Part shown: piece by piece, positions 1-7,424 of the stretch
Layout of the letters: every line of letters starts with the position of its first letter
Position numbering within the stretch: position 1 is the first letter of the stretch
Source: a virus
Lineage: Duplodnaviria; Heunggongvirae; Uroviricota; Caudoviricetes
DNA: 7,424 nucleotides
IMG/VR virus record: IMGVR_UViG_2645728091_000002
Location: 1-7,424 of that record
Direction: 5' to 3' (one strand)
The notes under the pieces: generated by a model
What the model saw: the letters and a program-made list of their open reading frames with translations, nothing else
Databases searched by the model: none
What the model was told of the DNA's origin: nothing
Program-made: the position numbers and the translations under genes

Positions 1-95
1 GTCGTCATGTGGGATGGCTGGTTCAGACTTCAGGATATGGTTGAGGGTTACCTGGTGATGAAGTCTCTTGATCAGGAGATCTGATCAAGAGACAG
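1..95 (+). mobile_element. Right end of an IS50-like (IS4 family) insertion sequence: transposase C-terminal fragment (1..84, continues upstream of the window) plus 19-bp terminal inverted repeat (77..95)
   Basis: Frame 1 of + strand reads VVMWDGWFRLQDMVEGYLVMKSLDQEI-stop (TGA 82-84), which resembles the Tn5 transposase C-terminus as I recall it (…WEGWEALQSKLDGFLAAKDLMAQGIKI). The reverse complement of 77-95 is CTGTCTCTTGATCAGATCT, matching the 19-bp IS50 inside-end sequence. The protein tail differs from IS50, so this is a relative, not IS50 itself. Lambda-O-like sequence begins abruptly at 96. Confidence 0.7.
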
Positions 96-458
96 CTCGT
101 TTTGAGGGATGCACCATTCTGAGATGTTTTTATTTGGTCCAAACATGCCGCCTTGCTGCTTGATAATATTCATTCTGACGAGCTCTAACTTGGCTTCATT
201 GCATCGTTTGACAGGTAACTTTGTAATCTCACTAAGTTGAGAATCGGTGATTCTGTCCATTGGTTTATTCCACCCATAGGTTTTACGCAGAATGGCAAGC
301 AGCACTTTAAACTGTCGCTTGGTCAGATCTGCGCCTGAATAAGCCTCAAGCAGCATATTTGATAGTCTGGCGTAACCATCATCGAGATCTGCCACATTAC
401 GCTCCTGTTCGGCAAAGTTACCTCTGCCGAAGTTGAGTATTTTTGCTGTATTTGTCAT
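72..458 (-). pseudogene. O: Lambda-type replication initiator O, truncated after codon 121 by the IS insertion; fused to 7 IS-derived codons (LSLDQIS) before a stop
   Basis: Translation MTNTAKILNFGRGNF…NISEWCIPQNE matches the lambda O N-terminal domain as I recall it. Likely start is ATG at 456-458 with GGAG 6 nt upstream; the 143-aa ORF in the track is an upstream over-extension. O-derived sequence ends at 96, inside ATCCCTCAAAACGAG (minus strand, 96-110), the left half of a lambda ori iteron (TCCCTC-AAAAC-GAGGGA). Full-length O is about 299 aa. Confidence 0.85.
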
Positions 459-492
459 AATTACTCCTGTGGATTGATCCAGTCTTTCTACA

Positions 493-771
493 TCAGGCCT
501 CAAAACTGTTGCAGCAGTCTTGAGGCTTTTCTTTTGTCAGCACCATGGCTACTTTCTTTGCCAGCTCCGCTAATTCCTCGTCTTCAACACCCCACTCCAG
601 CACAGCCAGAAGCATGGCCATCTTTGGGATAAAGCTGTCTTTCCATCGCGAAATTTGCGATTCATTAATCCCTAATGCATCAGCAACCTTTCGCTGACCA
701 CGTACAGCAATTCGATTTAGGATGTTGCTTGTAATTGCATTCGCTTTCTTGCGAGTACTTGTAAGTTGCAT
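493..771 (-). CDS. c1: cII-family transcriptional activator, P22 C1-type (92 aa)
   Basis: Sequence MQLTSTRKKANAIT…QISRWK…IPKM…LLAVLEWGV… has the cII/C1 family hallmarks (SQISRWK helix-turn-helix region, LLAVLEWGV). It sits between cro and O as in lambdoid phages. I chose the internal ATG (769-771) over the track's ATG at 858 because the longer form would run through nutR boxB and the 92-aa form has the family length. Confidence 0.8.
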   Translation of the reverse strand: MQLTSTRKKANAITSNILNRIAVRGQRKVADALGINESQISRWKDSFIPKMAMLLAVLEWGVEDEELAELAKKVAMVLTKEKPQDCCNSFEA

Positions 772-828
772 ATGTAAGTATTTCCTTAACAAATAAGAAG
801 TTATACGCACCAACTGATGCGCGTTGTA

Positions 829-872
829 TTCCCGCATTTCGGCGGGAATGAGGACCATGACTGTTAAAGAGC
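829..872 (-). promoter_or_regulatory. nutR: boxA (862-872, GCTCTTTAACA on minus strand) and boxB hairpin (829-848, TTCCCGCCGAAATGCGGGAA on minus strand)
   Basis: boxA matches the boxA consensus (CGCTCTT-A type). boxB is a stem CCCGC/GCGGG around a purine-rich loop. The same boxA (11/11) and boxB core recur at nutL (1960-2000) with near-identical spacing. Confidence 0.7.
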
Positions 873-879
873 AATTTGC

Positions 880-1065
880 TTATGCCGCTTTGCGATAAGC
901 ACTTTCTTGATACTTCAGGGCGCCAGCTGTAACGACTTCCAGTCGATAGGCGTCTTTCTCTGGGATGACTTCCTTCCACTGAGAGACTGCTGCATCGCTA
1001 ATGCCTAACGCTTTAGCTACCGCACGCTGGGTTCCGAAGTGGTCGATAACATCTTTCTTGTACAT
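880..1065 (-). CDS. cro: Cro repressor, P22-type (61 aa)
   Basis: MYKKDVIDHFGTQRAVAKALGISDAAVSQWKEVIPEKDAYRLEVVTAGALKYQESAYRKAA matches P22 Cro as I recall it. GGAG lies 7 nt upstream of the ATG on the minus strand. It is divergent from the repressor gene across an operator region. Confidence 0.9.
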   Translation of the reverse strand: MYKKDVIDHFGTQRAVAKALGISDAAVSQWKEVIPEKDAYRLEVVTAGALKYQESAYRKAA

Positions 1066-1145
1066 AGACTCGCTCCGAAATTAAAGAACACTTAAATCAT
1101 CTGTCAAAGGAATCTTAAGTCAAGTTTATTTAAGATATCTTAACT
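1066..1145. promoter_or_regulatory. OR operator region with divergent pR (minus strand, towards cro) and pRM (plus strand, towards c2)
   Basis: Contains ATTTAAG/CTTAAAT-type half-sites: aattaaagaacacttaaat (1079-1097) and the 14-bp palindrome ttaagatatcttaa (1130-1143). Minus-strand -35 TTGACA is the complement of 1102-1107, with an A/T-rich -10 candidate about 17 bp downstream. The c2 ATG at 1146 has essentially no leader or Shine-Dalgarno, as in the lambda cI/pRM arrangement. Confidence 0.7.
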
Positions 1146-1796
1146 ATGAATACACAACTGATGGGTGAGCGTATTCGCGCTCGCAGAAAAGAACTCAAGA
1201 TTAGGCAGGCTGCCCTTGGCAAGATGGTTGGCGTGTCTAATGTTGCTATTTCCCAATGGGAGCGTTCTGAAACTGAGCCCAATGGCGAAAACCTATTGGC
1301 CTTAGCCAAGGCTTTGCAGTGTTCCCCTGATTACTTGTTGAAAGGAGAAGATAGTCTTTCAAACATTGCCTATCACAGCAGGCATGATCCAAGAGGTTCG
1401 TATCCTCTAATTAGTTGGGTAAGCGCAGGATGTTGGATGGAAGCTGTAGAGCCATATCATAAGCGTGCAATAGATAACTGGTACGATACAACCGTAGATT
1501 GTTCAGAAGATTCGTTTTGGCTGGACGTAAAAGGTGATTCGATGACGGCTCCAGCCGGTCTTAGCATCCCTGAAGGGATGATAATACTCGTCGATCCTGA
1601 AGTAGAACCTCGTAATGGGAAGCTGGTAGTGGCAAAGCTCGAAGGAGAAAACGAGGCAACTTTCAAGAAGTTAGTTATTGATGCTGGCAGGAGGTTTCTA
1701 AAACCACTTAACCCACAATATCCGATGATTGAGATCAACGGGAACTGCAAAATCATCGGTGTAGTTGTCGATGCAAAAATAGCAAACCTTCCATAA
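1146..1796 (+). CDS. c2: Prophage repressor, P22 C2-type (216 aa), LexA-like S24 autopeptidase C-terminal domain
   Basis: MNTQLMGERIRARRKELKIRQAALGKMVGVSNVAISQWERSE… is an HTH_3-type N-terminal domain and matches P22 C2 as I recall it. It has an Ala94-Gly95 cleavage site (VSAGCW), a GDSM serine motif (S132) and FKKL lysine (K174/K175), consistent with RecA-stimulated self-cleavage. Confidence 0.92.
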   Translation: MNTQLMGERIRARRKELKIRQAALGKMVGVSNVAISQWERSETEPNGENLLALAKALQCSPDYLLKGEDSLSNIAYHSRHDPRGSYPLISWVSAGCWMEAVEPYHKRAIDNWYDTTVDCSEDSFWLDVKGDSMTAPAGLSIPEGMIILVDPEVEPRNGKLVVAKLEGENEATFKKLVIDAGRRFLKPLNPQYPMIEINGNCKIIGVVVDAKIANLP

Positions 1797-1820
1797 GGGG
1801 CATTCGCCCCTTTTTTCTTT
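1797..1820 (+). terminator. Rho-independent terminator immediately after c2
   Basis: GGGGC(1797-1801)-ATTC-GCCCC(1806-1810) stem-loop followed by TTTTTTCTTT. Confidence 0.75.
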
Positions 1821-1854
1821 CCTTTAAAAATCAAAGCAAAACTTAAGCCCTGCA

Positions 1855-1925
1855 ATAAAATTTAAGTTTTCTTCAAAAACACTCTTGACCACAAATTAAA
1901 GAAATCTTAAATTTAAGTCATCAGC
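1855..1925 (+). promoter_or_regulatory. OL operators and pL promoter (leftward early promoter, + strand in this window)
   Basis: -35 TTGACC (1885-1890), 17-bp spacer, -10 TAAATT (1908-1913). Operator-like repeat aattaaagaaatcttaaat (1894-1912) matches the OR copy at 17/19 positions. Further ATTTAAG half-sites at 1860-1866 and 1911-1917. Confidence 0.7.
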
Positions 1926-1959
1926 AGGACGCTGGTAGCCAAACGGAACAGATTGGCAG

Positions 1960-2000
1960 GCTCTTTAACATTGATGGGATTGTCCCGCCGAAATGCGGGA
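1960..2000 (+). promoter_or_regulatory. nutL: boxA GCTCTTTAACA (1960-1970) and boxB hairpin TCCCGCCGAAATGCGGGA (1983-2000)
   Basis: Same boxA and boxB as nutR on the opposite strand. Located between pL and the N-like gene, as expected for an N-utilisation site. Confidence 0.7.
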
Positions 2001-2114
2001 ACCAAAGAGTAGTTGGCTTTGGGGTGATGTGAAGTGCAGCCGCGCGACAGCATCAGGGAATTAACCTCCCACCCCCCGTCACGTCACCGCTAAAGTCAAT
2101 CATCGGAGGTCAAC

Positions 2115-2414
2115 ATGACAGTAGTCATTACATATCTGGCTGACGATAACGCCAGAAATCGCCGCAGAGCACGCAGACAGGCTCAACGTGAACAGGCAAT
2201 GCAAGAGCAGCGACTGGCGCGAAAGATTGCGCTAAAGCTCTCTGGTTGCGTCAGAGCAGATAAAGCAGCATCACTCGGAAGCCTTCGCTGCCAGAAGGCA
2301 GAAGAAGTCGAGCGTAAACAGAACCGTATTTACTACAGCAAGCCACGCAGTGAAATGGGTGTGACTTGTGTTGGTCGCCAGAAAATGAAATTAGGCAGCA
2401 AACCACTTATTTGA
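2115..2414 (+). CDS. N: N-family transcription antiterminator (99 aa) with an atypical arginine-rich motif
   Basis: C-terminal two-thirds (…LARKIALKLSGCVRADKAASLGSLRC…ERKQNRIYYSKPRSEMGVTCVGRQKMKLGSKPLI) parallels the lambda N C-terminus (ERKNQRTWYSKPGERGITCSGRQKIKGKSIPLI) and the phage 21 N body as I recall them. The N-terminal ARM is DNARNRRRARRQAQREQ. GGAGG lies 5 nt upstream of the ATG. It is the first gene downstream of pL/nutL. Confidence 0.85.
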   Translation: MTVVITYLADDNARNRRRARRQAQREQAMQEQRLARKIALKLSGCVRADKAASLGSLRCQKAEEVERKQNRIYYSKPRSEMGVTCVGRQKMKLGSKPLI

Positions 2415-2422
2415 GGTGATAT

Positions 2423-2872
2423 ATGGAAGAACAGGCAAATAAGATTCTCATAGAACTATTGCAAAAAGCCAGTAATGGAATAGACGCGGCTGTCTCATTT
2501 AGCCAGGCACAGATTCCTGATGTTGTTCATCAGTTGCTGCTATGGAATATGGTTGATAGCCTGATTAAAACATTAATAGCCATTTTAACAATCCCGCTGG
2601 TTTTCTGGTTTATGAAGAAACAGTACCAAAAAGTTGAAATTGGTAAGTTCGATGATGAAGGATGGTCATGGGATAAGGGGAAGACTAAATACAAACCGAC
2701 TATGATTTGGGAAAGTAACGGTGAGATTAGTTTTCTAATCTTACCATTAGCTGCAGTTTTTGTTCTGTGGGTAAGTTTTATTATTGCTGTAGTAACCAAT
2801 ATGACATGGTTAGAAATTTTGCTGGCTCCAAAGCTTTACCTTATCGAATATGCAGCATCATTGGTTAAGTAA
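2423..2872 (+). CDS. Small membrane protein (149 aa, two predicted TM helices), function unknown; occupies the position where lambdoid phages carry sieB-type superinfection-exclusion genes
   Basis: GAGGTGA Shine-Dalgarno overlaps the N stop codon, with the ATG 8 nt after N, so it is translationally coupled. Hydrophobic segments LIKTLIAILTIPLVFWFM and ISFLILPLAAVFVLWVSFIIAVV. Visibly more A+T-rich than the flanking N and Red genes. I do not recognise the sequence as a named protein. Confidence 0.75.
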   Translation: MEEQANKILIELLQKASNGIDAAVSFSQAQIPDVVHQLLLWNMVDSLIKTLIAILTIPLVFWFMKKQYQKVEIGKFDDEGWSWDKGKTKYKPTMIWESNGEISFLILPLAAVFVLWVSFIIAVVTNMTWLEILLAPKLYLIEYAASLVK

Positions 2873-2876
2873 TTTC

Positions 2877-2902
2877 AGGCCGCATAGTCGGCCTTTATTT
2901 TT
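2877..2902 (+). terminator. Rho-independent terminator after the membrane-protein gene (tL1-like position)
   Basis: AGGCCG(2877-2882)-CATAGT-CGGCCT(2889-2894) stem followed by TTATTTTT. Confidence 0.7.
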
Positions 2903-2931
2903 GGCACTAACAACAGAATAAACACTGCACT

Positions 2932-2959
2932 GTGTATTCATTCCAACGAGTGAATACAC
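2932..2959 (+). other. Stable stem-loop (11-bp stem with one G·U, 6-nt loop) in a non-coding segment; not followed by a U-tract
   Basis: GTGTATTCATT (2932-2942) pairs with AGTGAATACAC (2949-2959); loop CCAACG. No convincing ORF or promoter around it. Confidence 0.5.
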
Positions 2960-3021
2960 GGAGCAATGTCGCTCGTAACTAAACAGGAGCCGACTTGTTC
3001 TGATTATTGGAAATCTTCTTT

Positions 3022-3048
3022 GCCCTCCAGTGTGAGGGCGATTTTTTA
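3022..3048 (+). terminator. Rho-independent terminator just upstream of the ea10-like gene
   Basis: GCCCTC(3022-3027)-CAGTGT-GAGGGC(3034-3039) stem followed by GATTTTTTA. Confidence 0.7.
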
Positions 3049-3067
3049 TCTATGAGGATATGAATAG

Positions 3068-3436
3068 ATGTCAAACATCAAAAAATACATCATTGATTAC
3101 GACTGGAAAGCATCAATAGAAATTGAAATCGACCATGACGTAATGACAGAGGAAAAACTTCACCAGATTAATAATTTCTGGTCAGACTCTGAATACCGAC
3201 TCAATAAACACGGCTCTGTATTAAATGCTGTATTAATCATGCTGGCGCAACATGCTCTGCTTATAGCAATTTCAAGCGACTTAAATGCATATGGTGTTGT
3301 GTGTGAGTTCGACTGGAATGATGGAAATGGTCAGGAAGGATGGCCTCCAATGGATGGTAGCGAAGGAATAAGAATTACCGATATCGATACATCAGGAATA
3401 TTTGATTCAGATGATATGACTATCAAGGCCGCCTGA
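3068..3436 (+). CDS. ea10: Acidic 122-aa early-left-operon protein; probable counterpart of lambda Ea10
   Basis: GAGGA lies 9 nt upstream of the ATG. The gene sits immediately upstream of cIII and has the 122-aa length I associate with lambda Ea10. The assignment rests on position and size; I do not reliably recall the Ea10 sequence. The C-terminal third is strongly acidic (DWNDGNGQEGWPPMDGSEG…DSDDM). Confidence 0.6.
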   Translation: MSNIKKYIIDYDWKASIEIEIDHDVMTEEKLHQINNFWSDSEYRLNKHGSVLNAVLIMLAQHALLIAISSDLNAYGVVCEFDWNDGNGQEGWPPMDGSEGIRITDIDTSGIFDSDDMTIKAA

Positions 3437-3460
3437 GTGCGGTTTTACCGCATACCAATA

Positions 3461-3482
3461 ACGCTTCACTCGAGGCGTTTTT
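3461..3482 (+). terminator. Putative terminator or RNA structure upstream of the cIII ribosome-binding site
   Basis: ACGCTTC(3461-3467)-ACTC-GAGGCGT(3472-3478), a 7-bp stem with one G·U, followed by TTTTTCGTT. Could also be part of the cIII leader structures known to modulate cIII translation in lambda. Confidence 0.45.
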
Positions 3483-3508
3483 CGTTATGTATAAATAAGG
3501 AGCACACC

Positions 3509-3673
3509 ATGCAATATGCCATTGCAGGGTGGCCTGTTGCTGGCTGCCCTTCCGAATCTTTACTTGAACGAATCACCCGTAAATTACGTGACGGATGGAA
3601 ACGCCTTATCGACATACTTAATCAGCCAGGAGTCCCAAAGAATGGATCAAACACTTATGGCTATCCAGACTAA
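3509..3673 (+). CDS. cIII: CIII (54 aa), inhibitor of FtsH-mediated CII degradation
   Basis: [54 protein letters not shown] matches lambda CIII as I recall it. AAGGAG lies 6 nt upstream of the ATG at 3509. The 78-aa ORF in the track is an in-frame upstream over-extension. Confidence 0.92.
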   Translation: MQYAIAGWPVAGCPSESLLERITRKLRDGWKRLIDILNQPGVPKNGSNTYGYPD

Positions 3674-3785
3674 ATTCACTATCGCCACTTTTATTGGCGA
3701 TGAAAAGATGTTTCGTGAAGCCGTCGACGCTTATAAAAAATGGATATTAATGCTGAAACTGAGATCAAGCAAAAGCATTCACTAA
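3642..3785 (+). CDS. kil: Kil (47 aa), host cell-division inhibitor
   Basis: [47 protein letters not shown] matches lambda Kil as I recall it. AGGAG lies 9 nt upstream. It overlaps the 3' end of cIII in another frame, as in lambda. The 89-aa track ORF is an over-extension. Confidence 0.85.
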
Positions 3786-4156
3786 CCCCCTTTCCTGTTT
3801 TCCTAATCAGCCTGGCATTTCGCGGGCGATATTTTCACAGCTATTTCAGGAGTTCAGCCATGAACGCTTATTACATTCAGGATCGTCTTGAGGCTCAGAG
3901 CTGGGCGCGTCACTACCAGCAGATCGCCCGTGAAGAGAAAGAGGCAGAACTGGCAGACGACATGGAAAAAGGCCTGCCCCAGCACCTGTTTGAATCGCTA
4001 TGCATCGATCATTTGCAACGCCACGGGGCCAGCAAAAAAGCCATTACCCGTGCGTTTGATGACGATGTTGAGTTTCAGGAGCGCATGGCAGAACACATCC
4101 GGTACATGGTTGAAACCATTGCTCACCACCAGGTTGATATTGATTCAGAGGTATAA
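3740..4156 (+). CDS. gam: Gam (138 aa), RecBCD inhibitor
   Basis: [80 protein letters not shown]… is near-identical to lambda Gam as I recall it. The internal Met (MNAYYIQ…) corresponds to the short Gam form. Confidence 0.93.
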
Positions 4157-4161
4157 AACGG

Positions 4162-4947
4162 ATGAGTACAGCACTCGCAACGCTGGCTGGGAAGCTGGCT
4201 GAACGAGTCGGCATGGATTCTGTCGACCCACAGGAACTGATCACCACTCTTCGCCAGACGGCATTTAAAGGTGATGCCAGCGATGCGCAGTTCATCGCAT
4301 TGCTGATCGTCGCCAACCAGTACGGTCTTAATCCGTGGACGAAAGAAATTTACGCCTTCCCTGATAAGCAGAACGGCATCGTTCCGGTGGTGGGCGTTGA
4401 TGGCTGGTCCCGCATCATCAACGAAAACCAGCAGTTTGACGGCATGGACTTTGAACAGGACAACGAATCCTGCACATGCCGGATTTACCGCAAAGACCGC
4501 AATCATCCGATCTGCGTTACCGAGTGGATGGATGAATGCCGCCGCGAACCATTCAAAACCCGCGAAGGCAGAGAAATCACCGGACCGTGGCAGTCGCATC
4601 CCAAACGGATGTTACGGCATAAAGCCATGATTCAGTGTGCCCGTCTGGCCTTCGGATTTGCTGGTATCTATGACAAGGATGAAGCCGAGCGCATTGTCGA
4701 AAATACTGCATACACTGCAGAACGTCAGCCGGAACGCGACATCACTCCGGTTAACGATGAAACCATGCAGGAGATTAACACTCTGCTGATCGCCCTGGAT
4801 AAAACATGGGATGACGACTTATTGCCGCTCTGTTCCCTGATATTTCGCCGCGACATTCGCGCATCGTCAGAACTGACACAGGCCGAAGCAGTGAAAGCTC
4901 TTGGATTCCTGAAACAGAAAGCCACTGAGCAGAAGGTGGCAGCATGA
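4162..4947 (+). CDS. bet: Bet (261 aa), Red-beta single-strand annealing protein
   Basis: [100 protein letters not shown]… matches lambda Bet in sequence and length. Confidence 0.95.
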
Positions 4948-5624
4948 CACCGGACATTATCCTGCAGCGTACCGGGATCGACGTGAGAGCTGTCGAACAG
5001 GGGGATGATGCATGGCACAAATTACGGCTCGGCGTCATCACCGCTTCAGAAGTTCACAACGTGATAGCAAAGCCCCGATCAGGAAAGAAGTGGCCTGACA
5101 TGAAAATGTCCTACTTCCACACCCTGCTAGCTGAGGTTTGCACCGGTGTGGCTCCGGAAGTTAACGCTAAAGCGCTGGCCTGGGGAAAACAGTACGAGAA
5201 CGACGCCAGAACCCTGTTTGAGTTCACTTCCGGCGTAAATGTTATTGAATCCCCGATCATCTATCGCGACGAAAGTATGCGCACCGCCTGCTCTCCCGAT
5301 GGTTTATGCAGTGACGGCAATGGCCTTGAGCTGAAATGCCCGTTTACCTCCCGGGATTTCATGAAATTCCGGCTCGGTGGTTTCGAGGCCATAAAGTCGG
5401 CTTACATGGCCCAGGTGCAGTACAGCATGTGGGTGACGCGAAAAGATGCCTGGTACTTTGCCAACTATGACCCGCGTATGAAGCGTGAAGGCCTGCATTA
5501 TGTCGTGATTGAGCGGAATGAAAAGTATATAGCGAGTTTTGACGAGATGGTGCCGGAGTTCATCGAAAAAATGGACGAGGCACTGGCTGAAATTGGTTTT
5601 GTATTTGGGGAGCAATGGCGATGA
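4944..5624 (+). CDS. exo: Exo (226 aa), Red-alpha 5'-3' exonuclease
   Basis: [94 protein letters not shown]… matches lambda Exo. The start overlaps the bet stop (ATGA), as in lambda. Confidence 0.95.
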
Positions 5625-5803
5625 AACATCCTCACGATAATATCCGCGTAGGCACGATCACTTTCGTCTACTCCGTTACGAAGCGAGGCTGGGTATTTCC
5701 CGGCCTTTCTGTTATCCGAAATCCACTGAAAGCACAGCGGCTGGCTGAGGAGATAAATAATAAACGGGGAGCTGTATGCACAAAGCATCTCCCGTTGAGT
5801 TAA
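5621..5803 (+). CDS. Small protein corresponding in position and size to lambda orf60a (60 aa)
   Basis: ATG overlaps the exo stop (ATGA at 5621-5624). 60 aa from [19 protein letters not shown]… An alternative start two codons upstream (5615) gives the 62-aa track ORF. Position immediately distal to exo as in lambda. Confidence 0.7.
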
Positions 5804-5967
5804 GAACGAGTATCGAGATGGCACATAGCCTCGCTCAAATTGGAGTCAGGTTTGTGCCAATACCAGTAGAAACAGACGAAGAATTTCATACGTTAGCCGC
5901 ATCCCTTTCACAAAAGCTGGAAATGATGGTGGCGAAAGCAGAAGCAGATGAGAGAGACCAGGTATGA
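5776..5967 (+). CDS. Small protein corresponding in position and size to lambda orf63 (63 aa)
   Basis: 63-aa [66 protein letters not shown], overlapping the end of the preceding gene as in the lambda orf60a/orf63 arrangement. Confidence 0.7.
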   Translation: MHKASPVELRTSIEMAHSLAQIGVRFVPIPVETDEEFHTLAASLSQKLEMMVAKAEADERDQV

Positions 5968-6043
5968 CAACCACTGAATGCATTTTTCTGGCAGCGGGCT
6001 TCATATTCTGTGTGCTTATGCTTGCCGACATGGGACTTGTTCA

Positions 6044-6259
6044 ATGACACCTCAGCAAGAAAACGCCCTTCGCAGTATTGCCCGTCAGGCTAATTCTGAA
6101 ATCAAAAAAGCCAGACAGCAGTTTCCGGATAAAAACGTCGATGACATTTGCCGTAGCGTACTGAAGAAGCACCGCGAAACGGTAACGCTGATGGGATTCA
6201 CACCGACTCATTTAAGCCTGGCGATCGGCATGTTAAACGGCGTCTTTAAGGAACGGTGA
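6044..6259 (+). CDS. Small basic protein (71 aa from this start), orf61-like position; start codon uncertain (alternative ATG at 5978 gives 93 aa)
   Basis: MTPQQENALRSIARQANSEIKKARQQFPDKNVDDICRSVLKKHRETVTLMGFTPTHLSLAIGMLNGVFKER. The ATG at 6044 overlaps the stop of a 27-aa upstream ORF (ATGA). Weak Shine-Dalgarno for either start. Confidence 0.6.
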   Translation: MTPQQENALRSIARQANSEIKKARQQFPDKNVDDICRSVLKKHRETVTLMGFTPTHLSLAIGMLNGVFKER

Positions 6260-6281
6260 GCATGAAAAACAAAATCATCAT

Positions 6282-6302
6282 GGAGCTACAGGCTCCTTTT
6301 TT
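6282..6302 (+). terminator. Rho-independent terminator in the distal pL operon
   Basis: GGAGC(6282-6286)-TACAG-GCTCC(6292-6296) followed by TTTTTTATTATT. Confidence 0.65.
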
Positions 6303-6357
6303 ATTATTCGCATTCACCCTCAAGCGTATTAACCAACAATTCAGGGATTAATGAAAG

Positions 6358-6579
6358 ATGGCAGACATCATTGATTCAGCATCAGAAATTGAAGAATTAC
6401 AGCGCAACACAGCAATAAAAATGCGCCGCCTGAACCACCAGGCTATATCTGCCACTCATTGTTGTGAGTGTGGCGATCCGATAGATGAACGAAGACGCTT
6501 GGCCGTTCAGGGTTGTCGGACTTGTGCAAGTTGCCAGGAGGATCTGGAACTTATCAGTAAACAGAGAGGTTCGAAGTGA
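6358..6579 (+). CDS. DksA/TraR-family C4 zinc-finger protein (73 aa), a probable RNA-polymerase secondary-channel binding regulator
   Basis: C-x2-C … C-x2-C motif (CCECGDPIDERRRLAVQGCRTCASC) and overall similarity to F-plasmid TraR (…CEACGNPIPEARRK…C..C) as I recall it. The 73-aa size is typical of phage TraR-like proteins. Confidence 0.8.
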   Translation: MADIIDSASEIEELQRNTAIKMRRLNHQAISATHCCECGDPIDERRRLAVQGCRTCASCQEDLELISKQRGSK

Positions 6580-6731
6580 GCGAAATTAACTAGAAGCCAA
6601 AGATAAAATCATCGCTGAGCAGGAGAAAATCGCTAACGGAGAAAAGACAGTAAGTCAGTATATGAAAACCGCATGATATCATCAGATAAAAATCGATCGT
6701 AAAGCGAAATATTAATACCAGAATAAACGAG

Positions 6732-6755
6732 TCGAGGTAAATTATATTACCTCGA
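6732..6755. terminator. Inverted repeat (9-bp arms, 6-bp spacer) between convergent genes; probable terminator for the minus-strand membrane-protein gene, possibly bidirectional
   Basis: TCGAGGTAA(6732-6740)-ATTATA-TTACCTCGA(6747-6755). On the minus strand the hairpin is followed by a T-rich run (complement of 6716-6731). It lies about 35 bp beyond the minus-gene stop at 6790-6792. Confidence 0.5.
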
Positions 6756-6789
6756 TAAATTAACTAAAACTTGCCCGCTATATACTATC

Positions 6790-7320
6790 TCATTCAGTAT
6801 CATCACGCGCGGTCTGTGCATATGTTACTACCGCACCTAATGTATTAATTTTCTTTTCAACATAGATAATATTATCGTACTCATAATTGCCATACGGATA
6901 GCAAATGCGAATATTCTCATGTAGATCGGGGTCATCCACCTCAGCTCCAGAACAACTTTTTGAACTACCGGAAGTATACCGATACGGTGCAACATAAGAC
7001 GATGTCTCTCCAGGCAAAAAATAAGTTAGTGTTGTAAGGGGTATAATCAGAAAAAATCCAGCAAATATGCACATCCCTGCATAAACCTTAAGGTATGCTG
7101 ACAGACTCTTCCAGCCGCTTTGTTTTACTATCCCCTTCTTAACCCAAAACAGAGATAACAGAAAAGCTATTCCCATGCTAAACAGAATGTAATAGTGGGA
7201 TATACTCTGATTAAGAAACGTGACCCTGTAAATATCTGCCCGCCACCAGAAGAAAAGGAAAATAAAGATCAGGCCTGAAACTGTCATGCAAATCAAATAA
7301 GGATACGAATCTTTTTTCAT
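6790..7320 (-). CDS. A+T-rich accessory (moron-like) membrane protein, 176 aa, three predicted TM helices plus a Cys-containing C-terminal soluble domain; function unknown
   Basis: Long uninterrupted ORF in strongly A+T-rich DNA, where chance ORFs are disfavoured. Lys-rich N-terminus MKKDSYPY followed by hydrophobic segments LICMTVSGLIFIFLFFWW, YYILFSMGIAFLLSLFWV and VYAGMCIFAGFFLIIPLTTLTYFL. Convergent with the pL operon. Its start codon is 9 bp from the IS10-type end. Confidence 0.7.
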   Translation of the reverse strand: MKKDSYPYLICMTVSGLIFIFLFFWWRADIYRVTFLNQSISHYYILFSMGIAFLLSLFWVKKGIVKQSGWKSLSAYLKVYAGMCIFAGFFLIIPLTTLTYFLPGETSSYVAPYRYTSGSSKSCSGAEVDDPDLHENIRICYPYGNYEYDNIIYVEKKINTLGAVVTYAQTARDDTE

Positions 7321-7328
7321 GTTTAGCG

Positions 7329-7424
7329 CTGATGAATCCCCTAATGATTTTTATCAAAATCATTAAGTTAAGGTAGATACACATCTTGTCATATGATCAA
7401 ATGGTTTCGCCAAAAATCAATAAT
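7329..7424 (+). mobile_element. Outside end of an IS10-type element (Tn10 family); element continues beyond the window, transposase gene expected on the + strand just past 7424
   Basis: CTGATGAATCCCCTAATGATTTTTATCAAAATCATTAAGTTAAGGTAGATACACATCTTGTCATATGATCAAATGGTTTCGCCAAAAATCAATAAT matches the IS10 outside-end sequence as I recall it, including the terminal CTGATGAATCCCC, the near-palindrome around AATGATTTT…AAAATCATT and the TTAAGTTAAGG IHF-site region. Flanking 9 bp TGTTTAGCG (7320-7328) resembles the IS10 target consensus NGCTNAGCN. Confidence 0.85.

Follow-up and report, generated by a model that had tools for sequence, protein, structure and literature searches.

Why does a prophage that appears to have lost the ability to replicate still carry a repressor equipped for cleavage in the SOS response? 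The question is raised by a stretch of viral DNA of 7,424 nucleotides (positions 1 to 7,424 of IMG/VR record IMGVR_UViG_2645728091_000002; the whole stretch is hereafter called the window), which corresponds to the early-left and immunity region of an E. coli prophage that is lambda-like and has the immunity of phage 21. An earlier note on this DNA had suggested that the retained repressor marks the element as a damage-inducible module of the host. The account favored here, which we regard as likely, is simpler: a young, IS-crippled imm21 prophage whose ordinary cleavable repressor would allow an abortive induction upon DNA damage.

Homology to prophages and phages spans the window from position 96 to about 7329, the best matches between the two IS ends all being lambdoid, and portions of the window are matched by 5,037 of 5,426 complete E. 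coli genomes. Bases 1–95 are the terminus of an ISEc13 (IS4-like) element inserted in gene O and the replication origin (ori); annotated ISEc13 copies of many E. coli genomes match them at 99% identity, and they include a perfect 13-bp terminal hairpin at 63–93. At the other side, beyond the pL operon, positions 7329–7424 represent the transposase-proximal (outside) end of an IS10/ISVsa5-family element, as indicated by 100% matches adjoining an ISVsa5-family transposase and by the presence on the minus strand, at 7424–7374, of RNA-OUT, the IS10 antisense RNA (Rfam, 61.4 bits), oriented toward the gene for a 176-aa membrane protein. The window is probably a short-read contig broken at these two IS repeats. 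One draft contig (L002, GCA_001265845.1) is 100% identical to the window over positions 1–7329 and shares the ISEc13 junction; it is without IS10 and runs on into xis and the start of int. Both insertions into the prophage appear to be recent events, the word “recent” being based on the identity among the few assemblies that carry the lesion and on its absence from complete genomes.

The repressor gene (1146–1796, plus strand) encodes a 216-aa protein of the phage 21 type (P22 C2-like), composed of an HTH and an S24 autoprotease domain. Its residues 10–64 match HTH_3 (Pfam, 6.4e-17) and residues 87–208 cover the full Peptidase_S24 model (Pfam, 6e-31); furthermore, residues 1–76 correspond to the P22 C2 DNA-binding domain of known structure (1ADR, 1.8e-39), and residues 85–209 align with structures of the lambda cI C-terminal domain (about 1e-32). 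Pairing of the cleavage-site segment (VSAGCW, against VQAGMF in lambda) and of the two catalytic motifs (GDSMT, against GNSMT in lambda, and TFKKL, the same in both) places the key residues at Ala94–Gly95, Ser132, and Lys174, the latter two of which we take to be Ser149 and Lys192 of lambda cI by lambda numbering. A five-way alignment including phages 21, mEp235, P22, and 434 shows no variation at the Ala–Gly, Ser, and Lys positions. The protein thus has the testable features of the LexA/lambda cI-type (HTH plus Peptidase S24) autoproteolytic repressors, and the claim of the earlier note that the c2 repressor retains the Ala–Gly site and the Ser/Lys pair is borne out by the domain matches, the alignments, and the invariance in relatives. 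Overall identity is 98.6% to the repressors of phages 21 and mEp235 and 93% to P22 C2. The repressors of phage 21 and P22 are inducible.

The resemblance to P22 C2 extends to the length of 216 aa, the Ala–Gly bond and Ser/Lys residues, and the N-terminal domain, which matches both 1ADR and 2R1J, whereas 15 positions are substituted, including a change of Gln96 to Cys beside the scissile bond that is common to phage 21. The genetic context also differs from that of P22, being of the E. coli lambda type with no immI/antirepressor region in view. RecA-mediated cleavage requires the Ala–Gly bond in the lambda repressor as well as in the 216-aa P22 C2 (PMC10448788), and this requirement, together with the 93–99% identity to the phage 21 and P22 repressors, leads us to predict that the window repressor would undergo RecA-stimulated self-cleavage. 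From phage 21 cI the protein differs solely by R106K, K183R, and L212I, and it might be argued that these three substitutions, or else host factors, block cleavage and leave a silent remnant with a non-inducible switch. However, all three exchanges are conservative and spare both the cleavage-site and the catalytic motifs, P22 likewise has Lys at position 106, and the identical repressor is present on apparently complete prophages elsewhere; we therefore consider a non-inducible switch barely credible.

The sites on which such a repressor would act are preserved on both sides of its gene. Three OR operators, recognized by a half-site scan and by alignment with phage 21, lie at 1080–1097, 1102–1120, and 1128–1145, together with pR on the minus strand (1123–1096; promoter scan), and only 5 of 91 positions in this region differ from the annotated OR of phage 21. 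Three OL operators on the plus strand (1831–1848, 1860–1877, and 1895–1912) were located by the scan combined with the phage 21 annotation; the half-site scan found all three OR sites and two of the three OL sites, that at 1831–1848 being placed by mapping of the phage 21 annotation. The promoter scan also identified pL on the plus strand (TTGACC-17-TAAATT, with the −35 element at 1885–1890 and the −10 element at 1908–1913). Directly after the repressor gene, a terminator-like hairpin with a T-run (1795–1812, plus strand) occupies the place where phage 21 has an annotated terminator, and the OL/pL region as a whole, including this repressor terminator, the −35 and −10 elements, and boxA, is almost base-for-base that of phage 21. 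The intact 61-aa cro gene (880–1065, minus strand) is of the P22/21 type (Pfam P22_Cro, 8.7e-28) and 96.7% identical to phage 21 cro. Since residues 1–105 of the repressor are identical to those of phage 21 cI, the DNA-binding domain is the same, and a recognition domain with its cognate operators, as expected of imm21, is found at the sequence level in the repressor, OR, OL/pL, and cro.

Downstream of each early promoter lies a nut site consisting of boxA GCTCTTTAACA and a boxB hairpin CCCGCCGAAATGCGGG, each recognized by its motif match to the other: nutL at 1960–1999 on the plus strand and nutR at 872–831 on the minus strand. The boxA and boxB sequences are identical in the two sites, a coincidence that was matched in none of 200 shuffles, and both boxB sites fold as hairpins (−12.5 kcal/mol for that of nutR). 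The antiterminator gene N (2115–2414, plus strand; 99 aa; phrog_271, 1.6e-36) encodes a protein with an arginine-rich N-terminus of the IME10/CUS-3 type and a 21-like C-terminus, so that the window contains the complete lambda-type arrangement of N with its arginine-rich motif and boxA–boxB pairs downstream of both pL and pR. As the protein is merely 71% identical to phage 21 N, a defective N was considered and rejected: its identity to the annotated N of the viable phages IME10, CUS-3, and Gally is 97% from end to end, and boxB is matched at both nut sites. This full-length identity indicates an intact N of alternative specificity rather than a damaged gene. Three terminator-like hairpins (2877–2894, 3020–3041, and 3460–3479, plus strand), together spanning 2877–3479 and enclosing the ea10 gene, lie within the pL operon, and expression of the distal genes should accordingly depend on antitermination by N.

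All of the pL-operon genes described here are on the plus strand. The first gene after N (2423–2872; phrog_3054, 7.3e-59) encodes a 149-aa membrane protein with two to three membrane segments predicted from hydropathy; its closest homologues, 81–88% identical, occur in viable phages and in the prophage of ETEC H10407, and a counterpart is absent from phages 21 and 434. It is followed by ea10 (3068–3436; DUF2528, 122 aa; Pfam 1.8e-47), which is 100% identical to phage 434 ea10, by the cIII thermoregulator RNA element (3496–3554; Rfam Lambda_thermo, 88.5 bits), and by cIII itself (3509–3673, 54 aa; Pfam Lambda_CIII, 1.5e-30). The 47-aa kil gene (3642–3785), by homology an inhibitor of FtsZ ring assembly, matches phrog_3924 over its full length (4.4e-36) and shares 96–98% identity with its counterparts in phages 434 and 21; it has the size and the position, between cIII and gam, that characterize the Kil family, and it overlaps the end of cIII as annotated in both of these phages. 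The gam gene (3860–4156, 98 aa; Pfam Gam, 3.4e-65), by homology encoding a RecBCD inhibitor, shows 98–99% identity to phages 21 and 434, and the Red recombination genes bet (4162–4947) and exo (4944–5624), assigned by homology, are full length and 97–99.6% identical to those of the same phages. The distal part of the operon (5621–6579) comprises small ORFs, namely an orf60a-like ORF, a DUF1382 ORF, a 71-aa ORF, a 29-aa ORF, and, as the last of them, a gene for a TraR/DksA zinc-finger protein (6358–6579). From ea10 onward, the genes are 92–100% identical to their phage 21/434 counterparts, and identities of 93–100% to viable phages apply to the operators, pR, pL, nut sites, N, cIII, kil, gam, bet, and exo, none of which is shortened; the genes for the 149-aa protein and Ea10 and the small distal ORFs likewise have the full length of their viable-phage counterparts. 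This full-length near-identity upholds the earlier view that pL, nutL, N, and the kil/gam/red genes are intact.

The earlier note had further assumed that two membrane proteins would be derepressed together with pL. This holds for the 149-aa protein, which is encoded in the operon, and fails for the second, a protein of 176 aa whose gene occupies 6790–7320 of the minus strand, with 9 bp between its start and the IS10 end. Because that gene is opposite in orientation and flanked by IS10, no sense derepression from pL would reach it, and a transcript from pL would be antisense to it. An identical 176-aa protein has been called in thousands of unrelated assemblies. Searches of Pfam, NCBIfam, and PADLOC assigned neither membrane protein to a family of known function or defense, and the PHROGs matches of both were to families of unknown function.

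Past cro, the 92-aa cII gene (493–771, minus strand; Pfam Phage_CII, 3.8e-44) is intact and 98.9% identical to that of the H10407 prophage, and beyond it lies the replication lesion. The truncated O gene (72–458, minus strand; Pfam Phage_rep_O, 1.2e-36) retains 121 of 299 codons (458–96), followed by seven ISEc13-derived codons and a stop; the residual part shows 99% identity to residues 1–121 of O in phages 434 and 21, where the protein has 299 aa, and a full-length initiator is thus missing. An origin of the lambda type consists of four contiguous O-binding iterons and an adjacent A+T-rich region. The records of phages 434 and 21 have four gpO-binding iterons annotated inside O, and comparison with these identifies a 15-bp remnant of the 18-bp iteron 1 at 96–110 (minus strand). 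Here the ISEc13 terminus directly abuts the sequence (ATCCCTCAAAACGAG|GGA), the insertion point being within the first O-binding iteron, and this 15-bp piece beside the IS is all of the four-iteron ori that is found within the window. The earlier statement that O and ori are destroyed therefore stands in so far as O is truncated and iteron 1 is split; since the window does not extend to iterons 2–4, P, and the late genes, “destroyed” covers O and the first iteron only. With O truncated and the origin split, the prophage would be unable to replicate, and its induction would be abortive.

Taken as a whole, the window resembles phage 21 (lambda imm21) most closely, with a repressor and cro at the identities given above, near-identical operators, pR, pL, repressor terminator, and boxA, and a stretch from ea10 through exo that is 97–100% identical. 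It differs from phage 21 in the arginine-rich N-terminus of N and the boxB sequence, both of the IME10/CUS-3 specificity type, in a cII of another type, in the gene for the 149-aa membrane protein that replaces ral, and in the interruption of O and ori by ISEc13.

From the gene content, motifs, regulatory sites, and lesions observed in the window, the following course of events can be proposed, for which cleavage, antitermination, and the physiological outcome are drawn from homologues and from the literature. Before induction, the HTH domain of the repressor would keep pR and pL silent by binding to the operators, three at OR and three at OL. Upon DNA damage, RecA filaments would stimulate self-cleavage of the repressor at Ala94–Gly95, catalyzed by Ser132 and Lys174, whereupon pL and pR would fire. 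Binding of N to the boxB hairpins of nutL and nutR would then allow RNA polymerase to pass the internal terminators, and antiterminated transcription from pL should yield the 149-aa membrane protein, Ea10, CIII, Kil, Gam, Bet, and Exo. Kil would block the assembly of the FtsZ ring and bring about filamentation and loss of viability, while Gam would inhibit RecBCD and Red would become active; owing to the truncated O and the split ori, replication would be impossible and no phage would be produced. By analogy with lambda biology, Cro would later lower transcription from both promoters, and, because cro is intact, the expression from pL is expected to be turned down in due course. Homology gives good support to this route, which leads from SOS through self-cleavage and an N-antiterminated pL operon to Kil and Gam in the absence of phage; self-cleavage, antitermination by the N/boxB pair, and Kil activity are each assigned by homology and would be expected to operate as in the relatives. 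Should P, Q, and the lysis genes still be present past ISEc13, N-modified transcription that starts at pR might run through the IS and add P toxicity or single-copy lysis to these effects.

That defective lambda prophages have the outcome predicted here is decades-old knowledge (PMC3961180). In those used for kil studies and in recombineering strains, the repressor, pL, N, kil, gam, bet, and exo are present as in the window and replication is likewise lacking; derepression leads to Kil-dependent filamentation and death, with expression of Red (PMC3961180). A derepressed defective prophage reduced to the immunity region and the pL operon suffices, filamenting and dying in a kil-dependent manner, and the Kil product blocks FtsZ ring assembly (PMC3961180). 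Those prophages are, however, laboratory constructs with the heat-labile cI857, usually without cro in the recombineering versions, whereas the window has a natural IS insertion, a wild-type repressor expected to be SOS-responsive, and an intact cro.

Since the only lesions seen are the two IS insertions and the genes are otherwise intact, Red included, one may ask whether the element is held in reserve for a return to phage production, the repressor meanwhile giving mainly ordinary immunity to phage 21-type phages. Such a return could come about by precise loss of ISEc13, by supply of O from a co-resident lambdoid prophage, or by Red-mediated recombination with a superinfecting phage; E. coli often holds several lambdoid prophages with similar modules, as is also reflected in the 5,037 genomes matching parts of the window, and the related contig L002 retains xis and the start of int. 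O might indeed be provided in trans by a co-resident lambdoid prophage, but with the origin split in iteron 1 this O would still be without its normal cis site. Moreover, rescue events would be rare, and the contigs carrying the junction end at the IS. We regard this reading as unlikely, even though the repressor, by analogy with phage 21, would also confer the usual immunity to phages of that type.

Whether the crippled prophage has instead been selected as a damage-inducible host module, causing growth arrest, altered recombination, or phage exclusion, can be judged from its distribution. Every component needed for such a module is intact, and a natural precedent exists in the SOS-linked division inhibitors of the defective prophage e14 (CohE/YmfM; bioRxiv 10.1101/2020.11.19.390815). 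The junction between ISEc13 and O, however, occurs in none of the 5,426 complete E. coli genomes, and an exact-match scan of species-representative genomes likewise found no copy. It was found, by way of the truncated O protein, in 19 draft or metagenome contigs, all of which end at the IS, and the six of these that were retrieved are 99.6–100% identical to the window. The identical repressor protein (WP_001095981.1), on the other hand, is carried by prophages of other strains. In three sampled relatives of this kind O and P are intact and are followed by nin, Q, lysis, and head genes, and one of the relatives with the identical repressor, the SCU-301 prophage, appears complete. A fourth, that of ETEC H10407, has a separate and unrelated frameshift in O. 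This independent O lesion beside an identical and intact repressor could be taken in favor of selection, but as the lesions differ among lineages and O/P and the late genes are intact in the sampled relatives, the O lesions are better seen as sporadic and independent, like ordinary prophage decay. The ETEC-type relatives were also considered as conserved truncated remnants (“TagO” after a ren pseudogene), which would have favored domestication; this was rejected, as nin, Q, lysis, terminase, and portal genes lie beyond. Domestication would be recognized by a defective state conserved across divergent host lineages, and no such conservation was found.

The retention of the repressor has, in addition, a trivial explanation in the toxicity of the operon that it silences: its loss would be lethal as long as N and kil are intact, and the lesion is young, leaving no time for decay. 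Neither membrane protein matches a known defense family, and the 176-aa gene points the opposite way. With the allele confined to near-identical contigs and with relatives that are ordinary prophages, the proposal of a damage-inducible host module finds no support, and we hold it to be decidedly improbable; nothing in the sequences points to recruitment of the element for a host function. It is more doubtful still, and in our estimate highly improbable, that the lineage keeps the crippled prophage because a non-productive induction triggered by SOS benefits the population. If this were true, the element might be an altruistic switch for suicide or arrest under DNA damage or a lysis-free source of Gam and Red that boosts recombination with incoming DNA, to which the 149-aa membrane protein might add phage exclusion.

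The young, IS-crippled imm21 prophage favored here is worth comparing with two cryptic prophages in which division inhibitors are placed under phage-type control. Like the window element, e14 of E. coli K-12 is a non-productive prophage with a cI-like repressor, CohE, which is thought to respond to SOS and then to release YmfM (SfiC), an inhibitor of division acting on the formation of the FtsZ ring (bioRxiv 10.1101/2020.11.19.390815; PMC3961180). However, e14 belongs to an unrelated phage lineage, has an unrelated inhibitor, and is old and widely studied, whereas the window prophage is barely decayed and is known from few assemblies. In the Qin prophage, an immunity-like switch (DicA/dicBF) similarly governs a pL-like operon with a division inhibitor, but DicA is a protein of 135 aa without the Ala–Gly bond and the protease domain and shows no RecA induction (PMC10448788). 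In contrast to DicA, the window repressor retains the full cleavage machinery.

Cleavable cI-type repressors, N antitermination, the killing that Kil of defective prophages causes, and cryptic prophages that respond to SOS, e14 among them, are all already established, so the importance of the present locus is mostly one of annotation; the adaptive reading is unsupported, and no question is made newly testable. What the window offers is a mapped, natural imm21 lambdoid prophage caught soon after the loss of replication, with an IS in the first iteron of its origin. Strains carrying it should be hypersensitive to SOS-inducing agents through Kil and should express Red transiently, which could matter for treating or engineering them.

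A mosaic joint lies within the antitermination system of the prophage (N, 2115-2414, +; nutL, 1960-1999, +; nutR, 831-872, -). By sequence comparison, boxA and N over its C-terminal two-thirds resemble phage 21, and the N-terminal, arginine-rich part of N has been exchanged, together with the boxB hairpin of each nut site (CCCGCCGAAATGCGGG), for the IME10/CUS-3 type. This arrangement is a neat example of the exchange, as one unit, of the N arginine-rich motif and its boxB RNA target. Farther along the early-left region, Rfam recognizes the RNA thermoregulator of lambda cIII at 3496-3554 with a score of 88.5 bits, well over the threshold of 50 bits, so this prophage has probably kept the temperature dependence of cIII translation.

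Two insertion-sequence ends bound the window. In the ISEc13 terminus, an inverted repeat occupies positions 63-93, its two 13-bp arms matching perfectly around a loop of 5 nt (gtctcttgatcag-gagat-ctgatcaagagac). The outer arm stops 2 bp short of the IS end at base 95, and the repeat would be transcribed by read-through from pR/O. At the other boundary (7320-7424), the ATG of the 176-aa membrane protein gene (6790-7320, -) lies 9 bp downstream of the outside end of the IS10/ISVsa5-family element, and RNA-OUT at this end (Rfam, 61.4 bits) is oriented into the gene. The IS10 target in the window, CGCTAAACA, is similar to the IS10 hot-spot consensus. The membrane protein gene is annotated elsewhere with a longer N-terminus, giving 189 or 200 aa, and this extension would be lost through the IS10 insertion. 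Read-through from pOUT, which lies beyond the window, might express the 176-aa protein.

Some related prophages have decayed along other lines. In the reference ETEC strain H10407, the prophage at the lambda attachment site (L001, regions of note 5528-6360 and 8010-8282) encodes a repressor 100% identical to that of the window (216 aa, 1146-1796, +) and an N that departs after residue 64 towards the mEp213/HK620-like type. The frameshift in its O is a replication lesion that arose independently in this sister prophage. One group of relatives, represented by E. coli 120899 (L022, 6975-8776 and 15032-15846), has ren as a pseudogene, and the next gene bears the annotation TagO, a type VI secretion-associated protein. 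In these relatives an IS100 separates the lysis cassette from a gene for a Rha-family regulator located upstream of the packaging genes; they show another decay route of the same prophage type.

The assembly index lists the identical 176-aa membrane protein in 8,937 of its blocks. In all six genomes sampled (L011-L016, at about 10001-10625 in each stretch), its gene belongs to a strongly decayed remnant of a prophage, with dsdC, emrKY, and evgAS close by, and in three of the six (L013, L015, and L016) a partial exo (YqaJ) fragment adjoins it. As a long-retained prophage gene, the 176-aa membrane protein looks like a better candidate than the repressor module.
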